From an uncultured Rickettsiales bacterium (GTDB lineage: Bacteria > Pseudomonadota > Alphaproteobacteria > Rickettsiales > UBA6187), in the NCBI GenBank assembly GCA_964616845.1, contig CAZTUN010000004.1:1-41606 (forward strand): 41,606 nucleotides of DNA, written 5' to 3'. Both the position numbers and the translations under genes were made by a program. Each line of letters begins with the position of its first letter. Within the stretch, counting starts at the first letter, position 1. The notes under the pieces were generated by a model that was not told the origin of the DNA, searched no databases, and saw nothing but the letters and a program-made list of their open reading frames with translations. Shown here in pieces: positions 6,610-11,766 of the stretch.

Positions 6610-7041
6610 GTTGCGGCTGGACATTCTAATCTAATCTGATATTATAGAAGCATCGGCGCATGATATACAGCCGCTGTTGCGGCTGGACATTCTAATCTAA
6701 TCTGATATTATTGGCATTATGTAAAATAAATGGTATTACGCGTTGCGGCTGGACATTCTAATCTAATCTGATATTATGCATTGATAAAGCTTATTGGCGT
6801 TACCCTAGTTGCGGCTGGACATTCTAATCTAATCTGATATTATATATTTAAACTTTAAAGTGGCTGAGCCTCTGTTGCGGCTGGACATTCTAATCTAATC
6901 TGATATTATATAAGTAAGCAAGCAGATGATCAATTAATTGTTGCGGCTGGACATTCTAATCTAATCTGATATTATTATATGTACATGGTTGTCAACACAT
7001 ATTTTGTTGCGGCTGGACATTCTAATCTAATCTGATATTAT
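6610..7041 (+). CRISPR. CRISPR array: 7 identical 36-bp repeats (GTTGCGGCTGGACATTCTAATCTAATCTGATATTAT) and 6 unique 30-bp spacers
   Basis: Repeats start at 6610, 6676, 6742, 6808, 6874, 6940 and 7006, an exact 66-bp period. The plus-strand polarity is inferred from the GTTG start, the tracr anti-repeat strand and the embedded -10 boxes. Confidence 0.97.
6637..6645 (+). promoter_or_regulatory. repeat-embedded extended -10 promoter TGATATTAT (representative copy)
   Basis: The last 9 nt of every repeat read TG-n-TATTAT, recurring at 6703, 6769, 6835, 6901, 6967 and 7033. The placement matches TGCTACAAT in the Neisseria meningitidis II-C repeat. Confidence 0.5.
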
Positions 7042-7088
7042 AGATGCTAATATAGCTTATTGAAAAATAACGATATATTGCATCTATA
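7039..7088. repeat. long imperfect palindrome between the last CRISPR repeat and the cas2 stop
   Basis: TATAGATGC(T)AATATA pairs with TATATTGCATCTATA. An inner TTATT-GAAA-AATAA stem is also present. No U-tract follows on either strand. Confidence 0.6.
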
Positions 7089-7114
7089 ATAATAAAAAAT
7101 CATATTATTTAATC

Positions 7115-7462
7115 CTAAAAAACTTCTAAAATCTTCGGTTTTTCTGCTATATTTTCCATTTTACTGTTAAAAAAAGTCTCCATTGTTGCAAATTGTTTAT
7201 CAGTAATATACATCAGAGTAATTTTTCCCATTGGTGGTAATTTATGCCTTATTCTATCAGATAAAGCCGTTGTCTTTTCTCTACTGCCAACAAAACGCAT
7301 ATAAACCGAAAACTGCGCCATTCTAAATCCCTGATCTAGTAAATATAATCTAAATTTAGAAGCATTCTTACGCTCTAAAGCTGTAAAAGTAGGCAAATCA
7401 AACATAACCATCATCCACATAAGCTTATACTCACTTTCCATATGTACAACTCTCACATCCAA
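7115..7462 (-). CDS. cas2: CRISPR-associated endoribonuclease Cas2 (type II)
   Basis: MMVMFDLPTFTALERKNASKFRLYLLDQGFRMAQFSVYMRF...GKITLMYITDKQF is the type II Cas2 pattern. The likely true start is the Met at 7441 (MESEYKLMW), overlapping the cas1 end. Confidence 0.9.
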   Translation of the reverse strand: MDVRVVHMESEYKLMWMMVMFDLPTFTALERKNASKFRLYLLDQGFRMAQFSVYMRFVGSREKTTALSDRIRHKLPPMGKITLMYITDKQFATMETFFNSKMENIAEKPKILEVF

Positions 7463-11300: not shown

Positions 11301-11607
11301 CCCTTAAAAAATAAGGGTCTAGGCTAGTTAGTTTTTTTCTATCACTTACTTCTGATGGCATTAATTTTTTTGTAACAAGAAAATTTAAAAGATTATTGCG
11401 TCTCCTGACAAAACGATCTCTACGTCTACGCATTCCTCTAGCTTCTCTCCTTTCTACAGCTAAAGAAGTCTTGGTTTTACTGTCTCTACCATCTGAGAAT
11501 ATCCTAACTCCTGCATGAAAAACATCATATGGATTACCTTCCCTTAATTCGACTAAAGCAAATCCTATTGAGTTTGTTCCTACATCAAGTCCAAGACGGT
11601 ATTGCAT
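8338..11607 (-). CDS. cas9: CRISPR-associated endonuclease Cas9, compact type II-C-like (1089 aa)
   Basis: RuvC-I is [16 protein letters not shown]. The Arg-rich bridge helix is [22 protein letters not shown]. RuvC-II is [9 protein letters not shown], HNH is [37 protein letters not shown], and RuvC-III is [13 protein letters not shown]. Confidence 0.97.
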   Translation of the reverse strand: [1089 protein letters not shown]

Positions 11608-11684
11608 AAATTTTATTCCTCTATGTTTCTATAGTTTTAAAATATCTATTGCCAATAAATATATATTATGCTAACAATAATTTT

Positions 11685-11766
11685 ATTAGATTAGAATGTC
11701 CAGTCGTTAATAAGATGAAACATTCACAAAATACGAGGTAGAGCTGCGGTTTTACCTCTTTTTTTT
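11685..11766 (+). ncRNA. predicted tracrRNA (anti-repeat, short hairpin, intrinsic terminator)
   Basis: Bases 11685-11703 (ATTAGATTAGAATGTCCAG) are the exact reverse complement of repeat positions 8-26. The following TCGTTAAT can pair with repeat positions 1-7 using G-U pairs and one bulge. AAG then follows, as in Nme tracrRNA. The 5' end is approximate. Confidence 0.7.
11735..11766 (+). terminator. rho-independent terminator of the predicted tracrRNA
   Basis: The stem GAGGTA / TACCTC has a 12-nt loop and is followed by T8 (11759-11766). Confidence 0.7.

Follow-up and report, generated by a model that had tools for sequence, protein, structure and literature searches.

Does an AT-rich, alphaproteobacterial chromosome carry a complete CRISPR-Cas9 system of type II-C, and does any part of it depart from what is described for that subtype? 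The question was raised by a locus in the 41,606-nucleotide stretch of DNA analyzed here (the window), which the initial annotation read as a complete, compact type II-C system. All the parts that it listed were found, and our results showed that this is very probably a chromosomal, intact type II-C adaptive immune locus. The system is compact and apparently working, and its design is ordinary for II-C. Nothing relevant came up in a literature search for type II-C systems in Rickettsiales.

The cas genes and their chromosomal setting

The window has a GC content of about 0.31. Its SecY is 79% identical to a MAG protein and 71-74% identical to proteins labelled Rickettsiaceae or Rickettsiales bacterium; the closest MAGs carry the label Rickettsiales, which agrees with the AT-rich, alphaproteobacterium-like genome first proposed. 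The locus sits among chromosomal housekeeping genes, and its protein-coding neighbours are DAHP synthase and a TMEM43-family gene. Both of the flanks that had been named, a Pro-rich membrane protein on one side and a tRNA-Arg on the other, were confirmed. The genes are as follows:

4431-6311: TMEM43-family membrane protein with a Pro-rich tail, the flank on the array side
7115-7462, minus strand: cas2, a 115-aa open reading frame from TTG 7462
7431-8357, minus strand: cas1 of type II (NMENI) flavour, 308 aa
8338-11607, minus strand: cas9, 1089 aa (TIGR01865; Pfam HNH_4, RuvC_III and Cas9_a)
11930-12006: tRNA-Arg(CCT), the flank beyond the tracrRNA

In one point the initial annotation went further than the sequence, namely that the locus is inserted. 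The GC content of the cas locus is 0.31-0.35, compared with 0.26-0.38 across the rest of the window; because the two are compositionally indistinct, an insertion can only be inferred, and the sequence does not show one. No mobile-element genes were found near the locus, and no GC shift marked an island boundary. A flanking direct repeat (6286-6308 and 11886-11908, 78% identity) was considered as an island boundary and rejected, as sixteen other chance pairs were as good.

Cas9 matched TIGR01865 from end to end with 640 bits (cut-off 100). The RuvC-I residue D8 lies in DVGTNS, the Arg-rich bridge helix covers residues 53-71, RuvC-II contributes E513, HNH contributes H592 (in VDHILP) and N615, and RuvC-III contributes H735 and D738 (in HHAVD). 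These six catalytic residues were invariant in a 27-sequence alignment of homologs. The protein therefore has the length and all the nuclease motifs attributed to it, with the catalytic Asp of DVGTNS and His of DHILP unsubstituted. A beta-rich C-terminal WED/PI region begins at about residue 800, and the AlphaFold model has a mean pLDDT of 79.

The other two genes were equally clear. Cas1 scored 255 bits against TIGR03639 (cas1_NMENI; cut-off 120) and 2.8e-95 against PADLOC Cas1_II; the Cas2 scores were 5.8e-15 for PF09827, 68 bits for TIGR01573 and 5e-39 for PADLOC Cas2_II. The start of cas1 overlaps the end of cas9 by 20 nt. The true start of cas2 is probably ATG 7441, which gives a protein of 108 aa (96-108 aa in the relatives) and overlaps the cas1 stop by 11 nt. 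The overlapping stops and starts noted earlier are thus real, and the three genes would form one translationally coupled minus-strand operon.

The array and its guide RNA

The array lies downstream of cas2, and near the start of cas9 we found a tracrRNA gene:

6610-7041, plus strand (crRNA sense): CRISPR array, in which seven identical 36-bp repeats alternate with six 30-bp spacers
6618-6645, plus strand: sigma-70-type repeat promoter, TGGACA-16 nt-TATTAT with a TG extension
11649-11678, plus strand: candidate tracrRNA promoter, TTGCCA-18 nt-AACAAT after TGC (9/12, consensus match only)
11685-11766, plus strand: tracrRNA (about 82 nt), pointing away from cas9 and lying 77 nt upstream of it

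Repeats and spacers were as first counted. Copies of the repeat (GTTGCGGCTGGACATTCTAATCTAATCTGATATTAT) start at 6610, 6676, 6742, 6808, 6874, 6940 and 7006, and the spacers, from S1 (6646-6675) to S6 (6976-7005), are all different. A possible eighth, degenerate repeat at 6505-6548 was discarded as a chance match, with 61% identity and the wrong spacing (105 nt). The crRNA sense is the plus strand because of the complementarity of the anti-repeat. The array would be transcribed oppositely to the cas genes, towards the 3' end of their operon, and crRNA and tracrRNA both lie on the plus strand.

Each of the seven repeats contains the promoter element, the last one at 7014-7041, with 10 of 12 consensus matches and the TG. 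The relatives retain TGGACA-16 nt-TATACT, TATAAT or TATTAT although the 3' part of their repeats differs. Transcription is predicted to start about 6-8 nt into each spacer; since a promoter lies in every repeat, a crRNA would start a few nucleotides inside its spacer and carry a guide of about 23-25 nt. Such repeat-embedded promoters are known from Neisseria meningitidis and Campylobacter jejuni (PMC5965381; PMC12477760), and the II-C literature describes them, along with ecrRNA hairpins and the uptake of spacers at the last repeat. On the basis of this literature and of a degenerate cas-distal repeat in one relative (L006), S1 would be the oldest spacer and S6 the newest. Cas1-Cas2 would then insert new spacers at the cas2-proximal repeat, which adjoins the leader (7042-7114).

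The spacers were compared with several collections. The whole array gave chance-level matches only (E >= 0.1) in blastn against phage and plasmid collections; in IMG/VR there was no match to the exact 30-mers of S1, S3 and S4, to 22-mers of S2, S5 and S6 or to the 3' 20-mer of S1. This 20-mer did match four metagenome contigs, where about one match is expected by chance, and it was rejected as a protospacer, as the remaining 10 nt agree at only 3-4 of 10 positions. The repeat, with two degenerate positions allowed, had no match in the JGI metagenomes. No PAM or target was derived because no protospacer was found in the phage, plasmid, IMG/VR and JGI metagenome collections. The GC content of S1 is 0.53, compared with 0.31 for the host.

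The tracrRNA candidate proved to be real and conserved in relatives. Its modules follow in the order anti-repeat (11685-11706), GUUAAUAAG, nexus (11714-11724), UCACAAAAU, terminator hairpin (11735-11758) and a U-run to 11766; the small nexus hairpin and the terminator hairpin are both intact, and the exact 5' end is inferred. The repeat:anti-repeat duplex has 22-24 bp (-37 kcal/mol), and the sgRNA-like fold gave z = -9.2. The predicted sgRNA is 5'-N20-24-GUUGCGGCUGGACAUUCUAAUCUAAU-GAAA-AUUAGAUUAGAAUGUCCAGUCGUUAAUAAGAUGAAACAUUCACAAAAUACGAGGUAGAGCUGCGGUUUUACCUCUUUUUUUU-3'. Ten relatives have the same element, divergent from cas9; their terminator stem is 100% paired, with a compensatory change in 9 of 10 pairs, and changes in the anti-repeat track changes in the repeat, for example in L006. 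No Rfam family matched the tracrRNA. The candidate promoter falls within the 77 nt that separate the tracrRNA from the start of cas9, and a TGCTAnnnT-like element occurs at the same position in relatives. That the anti-repeat, read on its complementary strand, holds the cas9 promoter (TGGACA-17 nt-TATTGT; 11702-11674, minus strand) was set aside as speculation, the -10 not being conserved in relatives. Transcribed divergently near cas9, the tracrRNA would pair with the first ~24 nt of each repeat, and Cas9 with this RNA pair would cut matching DNA beside a PAM, using its RuvC and HNH sites.

Hairpins on both sides of the array

Structured elements were found upstream of the array, in the crRNA sense, and in the leader:

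6338-6357 and 6417-6433, plus strand: two terminator-like hairpins (consensus scan only)
6551-6604, plus strand: 20-bp hairpin, stopping 5 nt short of the first (oldest, "extra") repeat
7040-7087, plus strand: leader hairpin, whose first 2 nt still belong to the newest repeat
7042-7114, plus strand: leader, between the newest repeat and cas2, designated after the II-C literature

The two terminator-like hairpins follow the TMEM43-like gene and lie upstream of the array, where they are candidate insulators against read-through into it. A strategy based on Rho-independent terminators has been described for II-C arrays (PMC12080349). The 20-bp hairpin is strong (-26.3 kcal/mol, z = -9.0, none of 200 shuffles as good) and spans the 25-30 nt that would guide an extraneous crRNA; Rfam gave only sub-threshold microRNA-precursor matches, which are generic hairpin matches. 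It was not conserved in the relatives examined. It does match the published "ecrRNA-guide sequestering" device (PMC12080349), and it probably disables the useless extraneous crRNA that would arise when transcription reads through into the oldest repeat. The ecrRNA-suppression devices described by Feussner et al. (2025; PMC12080349) resemble this locus in both respects, with a strong hairpin over the 25-30 nt that lie upstream of the array's extra repeat and terminator-like hairpins further upstream. Their third strategy is mutation of the extra repeat, whereas the extra repeat in the window carries none.

On the cas side, most related loci keep the cas2 stop at a near-constant distance of about 73-75 nt from the repeat, and the leader contains the motif AAAAAATCAT (7094-7103), which is conserved in relatives. 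In the leader hairpin a short upper stem sits on a lower one of about 13 bp (z = -5.8). This 13-bp stem covaries: across ten loci its pairing reaches 93.8%, and both sides have changed in 8 of the 13 pairs. Its non-Watson-Crick cells, read in the crRNA sense, are 14 G.T against 3 A.C, a wobble bias specific to that strand, and in 9 of the 10 loci the hairpin folds more stably in that sense.

These observations suggest that the leader hairpin most likely works on the array transcripts, at the level of RNA, by defining their 3' end or insulating, and it would do so before they run antisense into cas2. The proposed role is weak because the U-tract of a canonical terminator is absent in this clade. 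As a canonical intrinsic terminator the hairpin was rejected for this clade: no U-tract follows it in either direction, whereas the II-C loci of Pasteurella multocida and Limnohabitans have a hairpin with a U-tract at the equivalent place, which in the Nme-like P. multocida is a canonical terminator. Rfam has no family for the leader. It is a tentative and rather doubtful idea that the hairpin and the fixed-length leader constitute a leader RNA element not yet described for proteobacterial II-C systems. If they did, the hairpin could determine where the precursor with the newest spacer has its 3' end or how stable it is, protect cas2 against convergent antisense transcription, or label the site of Cas1-Cas2 integration. 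The comparative set brings to light, for II-C arrays, a leader on the acquisition side that is both conserved and structured.

Alternative readings and comparison with known systems

It is improbable that the locus, though its sequence is intact, is immunologically idle or in decay, as a recently transferred or silenced cassette that has stopped acquiring spacers or interfering. It has just six spacers, none with a convincing match anywhere searched, and seven identical repeats would also fit a recently acquired but idle locus. Relatives in this Cas9 clade are frequently carried by mobile elements, with degradation in some: L089 keeps cas9 and the tracrRNA without cas1 or cas2, cas9 is interrupted near the bridge helix in L090, and a Novosphingobium plasmid copy has a truncated cas1. 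In the window, however, the three reading frames are full-length with coupled starts and keep all catalytic residues, the promoters embedded in the repeats are intact, as are the pairing, nexus and terminator of the tracrRNA, and the composition is fully adapted to the host. These features favour an apparently working system.

Still less probable is a mainly non-immune Cas9 that represses host genes through a scaRNA-like or tracrRNA-derived guide. Roles of this kind are known for Cas9 in Francisella, Streptococcus pyogenes and N. meningitidis (PMC12477760), and three related loci (L003, L008 and L092) carry, between cas9 and the gene for the tracrRNA, an additional repeat-like copy in inverted orientation. 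No such copy exists in the window. A search for self-targeting found no spacer match in the 41.6-kb window at up to 8 mismatches, or in any fetched locus, and the full adaptation module and the foreign composition of S1 point to defence.

In type II, csn2 defines II-A, where it lies downstream of cas2 and the array is transcribed from a leader promoter in the direction of the cas genes, and cas4 defines II-B, where it belongs to an operon with a large, FnCas9-like Cas9. Repeat promoters, a convergent array and acquisition at the last repeat are typical of II-C, outside its formal definition. In the ORF map of the window, non-coding gaps of 298, 73 and ~320 nt separate the TMEM43-like gene, the array, cas2 and the tRNA-Arg; csn2 and cas4 are absent from this map, with no room for either at the locus, and both are absent from ten related loci. 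The earlier statement that no csn2 or cas4 is present was therefore correct, with no such reading frame between the TMEM43-like gene and the tRNA-Arg or DAHP synthase.

The Cas9 itself points the same way. The PDB sequence search gave about 1e-67 for Nme1Cas9, ThermoCas9, GeoCas9 and HpaCas9, compared with about 1e-34 for SaCas9 and 1e-32 for St1Cas9 (about 230 bits for the II-C structures and 120 for II-A); there was no full-length SpCas9 chain among the PDB matches listed. Foldseek with the AlphaFold model placed Nme1Cas9, HpaCas9, ThermoCas9 and GeoCas9 at the top (E 1e-48 to 1e-41, TM up to 0.64-0.67). With these two rankings as a proxy for phylogeny, the Cas9 is closer to II-C than to II-A or II-B orthologs, which agrees with the subtype first proposed. 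A II-A or II-B system that has lost its fourth gene, or a II-D system, can practically be dismissed: the small II-A proteins SaCas9 and St1Cas9 are recognisably similar and there is a weak match to the Cas9d model, but the II-C structures score far above II-A in sequence bits and Foldseek ranking, the crRNA sense runs against that of the cas genes, the Cas9 has only 1089 aa and no FnCas9-like match among those listed, the Cas9d model (NF049971) gave 141 bits against a cut-off of 375, the relatives all lack both signature genes, and the array orientation and repeat promoters are II-C hallmarks.

The layout is thus textbook II-C, the regulatory features are ones already described for II-C, and the locus leaves the current understanding of type II-C function unchanged. 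Its Cas9 is a new, uncharacterised ortholog: the nearest public Cas9 is about 52-54% identical, the nearest relatives are all uncharacterised, and its peptides had no match in GTDB representative genomes. With this locus the II-C catalogue gains a divergent, compact Cas9 whose guide RNA is short and fully predictable; the lineage behind it is alphaproteobacterial, AT-rich, Rickettsiales-like and poorly sampled. This Cas9 may recognise a new PAM, and as a potential small editing nuclease it is a candidate for having its PAM profiled. The keeping of a full adaptive system suggests that the lineage meets mobile DNA often enough.

The closest relatives form a metagenomic Cas9 clade (proteins P0001-P0018; loci L001-L008 and L089-L092), with 43-54% identity to the Cas9 of the window. 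They share with it the 5' half of the repeat (GTTGCGGCTGGAC...), the repeat promoter, the tracrRNA modules, the gene order and a leader of ~73-75 nt with a hairpin; the cas9-cas1-cas2 layout is shared by ten related loci, one of which has cas9 and the tracrRNA only. Many loci of the clade lie in or beside mobile elements (serine recombinase, terminase, integrase, TraG).

Among characterized systems, the II-C locus of N. meningitidis (Nme1Cas9, 1082 aa) is likewise composed of just cas9, cas1 and cas2, with repeats of 36 nt and spacers of 30 nt as in the window; its array is convergent with the cas genes, has a promoter in each repeat and acquires spacers at the last repeat, as is predicted here. 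The extended -10 at the 3' end of the repeat is TGATATTAT in the window and TGCTACAAT in N. meningitidis. Nme1Cas9 was the best structural match (6je4/6jdv; E 1e-48 to 1e-46, TM 0.56-0.67), with an identity of about 22-23% over the structural alignment. The window differs from N. meningitidis in its tracrRNA, which lies upstream of cas9 and divergent from it and ends in a 4-bp nexus and one terminator hairpin. The closest named organisms are Novosphingobium, Azospirillum thermophilum, Limnohabitans, Haematospirillum jordaniae and Nitrobacter hamburgensis X14. Their alpha- and betaproteobacterial Cas9s, full-length homologs annotated as type II, are 32-36% identical over 95-99% of the protein, far less than the 52-54% found in the metagenomic clade, and Limnohabitans and Haematospirillum have cas9-cas1-cas2 followed by the array, with a structured leader. 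These named II-C Cas9s are plasmid-borne and have different repeat sequences, whereas the locus in the window is chromosomal.

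Type II-C gene content and Cas9

The subtypes of type II systems are set by the fourth gene: csn2 defines II-A, cas4 defines II-B, and its absence defines II-C. This definition is echoed in PMC12477760. The initial annotation had called positions 6610-11766 a complete II-C locus. The features located in the window are as follows.

Features of the CRISPR-Cas locus and its flanks
4431-6311: TMEM43-family membrane protein with Pro-rich repeats, array-side flank
6610-7041, plus strand (crRNA sense): CRISPR array, 7 repeats and 6 spacers
7115-7462, minus strand: cas2; TIGR01573 68 bits, PADLOC Cas2_II 5e-39
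7431-8357, minus strand: cas1, 308 aa; cas1_NMENI 255 bits (cut-off 120), PADLOC Cas1_II 2.8e-95
8338-11607, minus strand: cas9, 1089 aa; TIGR01865 640 bits (cut-off 100), whole model covered
11685-11766, plus strand: tracrRNA; anti-repeat, GUUAAUAAG, nexus, UCACAAAAU, terminator hairpin and eight U
11714-11724, plus strand: nexus-like hairpin of the tracrRNA, 4 bp, between GUUAAUAAG and UCACAAAAU
11735-11758, plus strand: terminator hairpin of the tracrRNA, 10 bp, followed by eight U residues
11930-12006: tRNA-Arg(CCT), flank on the cas9/tracrRNA side

Between the TMEM43-like gene and the DAHP synthase gene, cas9, cas1 and cas2 were the only protein-coding genes, and their family scores were far above the curated cut-offs. 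Neither csn2 nor cas4 occurred in this interval, whose non-coding gaps measured 298 nt (6312-6609), 73 nt (7042-7114) and ~320 nt (11608-11929). Ten related loci from public assemblies also lacked a fourth cas gene, and all shared the cas9-cas1-cas2 layout except one with cas9 alone. The three ORFs run head-to-tail on the minus strand, with a 20-nt overlap between cas9 and cas1. The cas2 ORF begins at a TTG; a start at ATG 7441 would instead give an 11-nt overlap with the cas1 stop, as in the coupling described earlier, and a protein of 108 aa, the size of Cas2 in the relatives.

All of the nuclease motifs named for Cas9 were found. RuvC is represented by D8 (DVGTNS), E513 (VELARD), and H735 and D738 (HHAVD), HNH by H592 (VDHILP) and N615, and the Arg-rich bridge helix by residues 53-71. 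Across 27 aligned homologs just 40-54% identical to the query, the six catalytic residues did not vary; the Asp and His whose substitution would have refuted the initial call are intact. A sequence search of the PDB placed the II-C enzymes Nme1Cas9, ThermoCas9, GeoCas9 and HpaCas9 at the top (~1e-67), ahead of the small II-A enzymes SaCas9 (~1e-34) and St1Cas9 (~1e-32); SpCas9 was represented by an HNH fragment alone, and no FnCas9-like match was among those listed. An AlphaFold2 model built from the 27-sequence alignment (mean pLDDT 79, pTM 0.59) was compared with the PDB using Foldseek. Nme1Cas9 ranked first (E 1e-48; TM 0.64-0.67 for 6jdv, its catalytic-state structure), followed by HpaCas9, ThermoCas9, GeoCas9, and then the small II-A enzymes. 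Identity as Cas9d was rejected (141 bits against a cut-off of 375).

The II-C assignment therefore stands against II-A and II-B, and both the observation and the interpretation of the initial annotation are correct. Judged by its sequence, the locus is a complete and apparently functional type II-C CRISPR-Cas9 system. Its regulatory architecture is already described for II-C; its value is that a poorly sampled lineage here supplies a compact, divergent Cas9 whose guide RNA is well defined.

Guide RNAs, array polarity and spacers

The array has the seven identical 36-bp repeats (GTTGCGGCTGGACATTCTAATCTAATCTGATATTAT; 66-bp period, starts 6610 to 7006) and six different 30-bp spacers reported for it. 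The tracrRNA candidate also held up. Its anti-repeat ATTAGATTAGAATGTCCAGTCG (11685-11706, plus strand) can base-pair with the plus-strand repeat over the latter's 5' two-thirds; therefore, crRNA and tracrRNA are both plus-strand RNAs, and the array is transcribed toward the 3' end of the cas operon. The repeat:anti-repeat duplex has an energy of -37 kcal/mol; for the fold of an sgRNA-like fusion, z = -9.2. No Rfam model matches the element, which is kept upstream of cas9 on the opposite strand in 10 of 10 relatives, including L089, a related cas9 locus. In a nine-sequence alignment, 100% of the terminator-stem cells were paired and both sides had changed in nine of ten pairs, a value that no column shuffle or slid register approached. 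The nexus stem is conserved and barely covaries; paired insertions lengthen it in two relatives. The anti-repeat mirrors changes in the repeat, as in the related locus L006, where a repeat with ...ACATCCTAATTTAAT accompanies the anti-repeat GATTAAATTAGGATGT.

A weak candidate promoter, TTGCCA-18-AACAAT with TGC before it, extends to 11678, and its position suggests a tracrRNA 5' end near 11685. The distance from the cas9 start codon to this end is 77 nt (window 11607-11706), so the two divergent promoters must overlap. On the minus strand, the anti-repeat complement carries a TGGACA -35 box identical to that of the repeats, then 17 nt and TATTGT, directed toward cas9; this -10 position is poorly conserved in relatives. 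Three relatives (L003 ~4990-5015, L008 6816-6851, L092 2748-2783) have a single repeat-like copy, inverted with respect to their arrays, in the interval from the tracrRNA gene to cas9. It could serve as a second anti-repeat, as a scaRNA-like gene, or as a promoter derived from a repeat and directed at cas9. No copy of this kind occurs in the window.

Every window repeat contains TGGACA-16 nt-TATTAT with a TG before the -10, and the TATTAT is the final six bases of the repeat. The layout is kept in relatives (TATACT, TATAAT or TATTAT) despite differing repeat 3' halves. Repeat-embedded promoters were first demonstrated in N. meningitidis and C. jejuni, where they place crRNA 5' ends within the spacer and make RNase III processing dispensable (PMC5965381); according to PMC12477760, transcription from such promoters "initiates from the 6th nt of each spacer". 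The window repeats carry a putative promoter of this kind, and by analogy the crRNA guides would be ~23-25 nt.

In II-C systems, the acquisition site is the last repeat in the direction of transcription, and the first is an "extra" repeat beside the oldest spacer (PMC13187072; PMC12080349). On this published polarity, S6 (6976-7005) would be the newest spacer, 7042-7114 the leader, and the repeat at 6610 the extra repeat. In L006 the sole mutated repeat is the cas-distal one, in agreement with this polarity.

A 20-bp hairpin at 6551-6604 (-26.3 kcal/mol, z = -9.0) stops 5 nt short of the extra repeat and spans the would-be guide stretch of an extraneous crRNA (ecrRNA); two terminator-like hairpins lie farther upstream. 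Feussner et al. (PMC12080349) list strategies concerning ecrRNAs, the second of which was shown experimentally in C. jejuni, and the window fits their description. The 6551-6604 hairpin was not conserved in the relatives examined, which agrees with the "disparate mechanisms" described there and adds no independent support.

The proposed spacer search for protospacers and a PAM gave no credible match in phage, plasmid or IMG/VR collections. When the array was compared by blastn with 50,697 phage and 72,556 plasmid records, only chance matches resulted (E >= 0.1); the 30-mers or 22-mers taken from the six spacers had no exact match in IMG/VR, and no spacer matched elsewhere in the window at <=8 mismatches. 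The 3' 20 nt of S1 (6646-6675) match exactly in four metagenome contigs (L093 2039-2058, L094 2069-2088, L095 185-204, L096 1629-1648). These sites fall in a conserved element of ~200 bp that is rich in hairpins and has unrelated flanks. The element lies ~40 nt from a match to the Rfam Gut-1 RNA (51.5 bits in L094); in L093, a gene for the terminase large subunit follows ~470 nt downstream. Because the 5' 10 nt are unmatched and about one such match is expected by chance, we take it as a lead only and not as a protospacer. The GC content of S1 (0.53 vs 0.31 in the host) fits a foreign origin.

Host and mobile relatives

The AT-rich, alphaproteobacterium-like character noted earlier was borne out: GC is ~31% throughout the window, with the cas locus compositionally indistinct, and SecY is closest to Rickettsiales-labelled MAG proteins. 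Its identity is 79% to a MAG protein, 71-74% to proteins that carry the label Rickettsiaceae or Rickettsiales bacterium, and ~65% to those of Rhodospirillales and other Alphaproteobacteria, the MAG labels being approximate. Window genes include TonB-ExbBD, DAHP synthase, prephenate dehydratase, Tgt/QueA, and the spc/alpha ribosomal protein operons. Three consecutive minus-strand ORFs (14428-17014; 260, 143 and 277 aa) and a plus-strand ORF of 578 aa (24620-26356) had no Pfam or PADLOC match. The flanks first described were confirmed, the Pro-rich membrane protein as a member of the TMEM43 family and the tRNA as tRNA-Arg(CCT); the degenerate PPPPPP-type repeats in the C-terminal region of the former (5805-6242) are unusual for a bacterial member of this family.

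The nearest Cas9s in a collection of 5.8 billion proteins were 52-54% identical, and the closest from named organisms were plasmid-borne II-C Cas9s (32-36%). Mobile-element regions lie in or beside the cas cassette in L001 (12463-17243), L090 (1-2004, 7843-8970), L006 (5444-6613, 15150-17126) and L091 (486-1031, 9126-9138). Neighbouring genes encode ParB-methylase, DUF5681, terminase, DUF2924 and serine recombinase, and also a tyrosine integrase with Prim-Pol and a resolvase with TraG. The close Cas9 clade appears to be carried by prophage-like and conjugative elements; unlike several close relatives, the window copy has no mobile-element neighbour genes.

Genes for tRNAs are common integration sites, and the window locus abuts one. 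No convincing att-like repeat was found at its borders. Two 23-bp direct-repeat copies, 78% identical, flank the whole locus, one at the end of the TMEM43-like gene (6286-6308) and the other 22 nt past the tRNA-Arg 3' end (11886-11908); the match was no stronger than other chance repeats within this AT-rich region.

The relative L089 (2823-6195) pairs a full-length cas9, 52% identical over 94% of the query, with an intact tracrRNA gene, wedged between nusG-rplK-rplA-rplJ and tuf; it lacks cas1, cas2 and an array. In L090 (2700-3001), the first ~70 cas9 codons (including RuvC-I and bridge helix) are cut off by a stop codon preceding the called 989-aa ORF, either a pseudogene or an assembly error.

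A conserved hairpin in the leader

In most related loci, ~73-75 nt separate the cas2 stop from the first base of the repeat. A conserved motif, AAAAAATCAT (crRNA sense, 7094-7103), lies in the leader, together with a hairpin (7040-7087) that starts within the final two repeat bases and goes beyond what the initial annotation described. In ten loci, 93.8% of the cells of its 13-bp lower stem were paired, and both sides change in 8 of the 13 pairs. Only 0-1 of 500 shuffles attained the observed values, and registers shifted by 1-3 columns gave 31-42% pairing. Non-Watson-Crick cells in the crRNA sense were 14 G.T vs 3 A.C, and the fold was more stable in this sense in nine of ten loci. This bias and the greater stability favour a hairpin formed in the array RNA over a DNA palindrome that binds protein.

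Our best guess is that the hairpin would limit or end array transcripts before they enter cas2 in antisense, and would stabilise the precursor bearing the newest spacer; it could also take part in integration-site recognition. We did not find it described in the II-C literature covered, which was limited. This conserved element, reached through the window locus, deserves a test.

In two more distantly related loci, those of Limnohabitans (L100 8304-8375) and the Nme-like Pasteurella multocida (L103 9446-9680), a hairpin and U-tract right after the leader-side repeat form a canonical terminator facing the array. Since both carry terminators there, II-C loci in general may insulate cas2 from array transcription that converges on it. 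Unlike these two, the window's clade has no U-tract after the leader hairpin in either direction.
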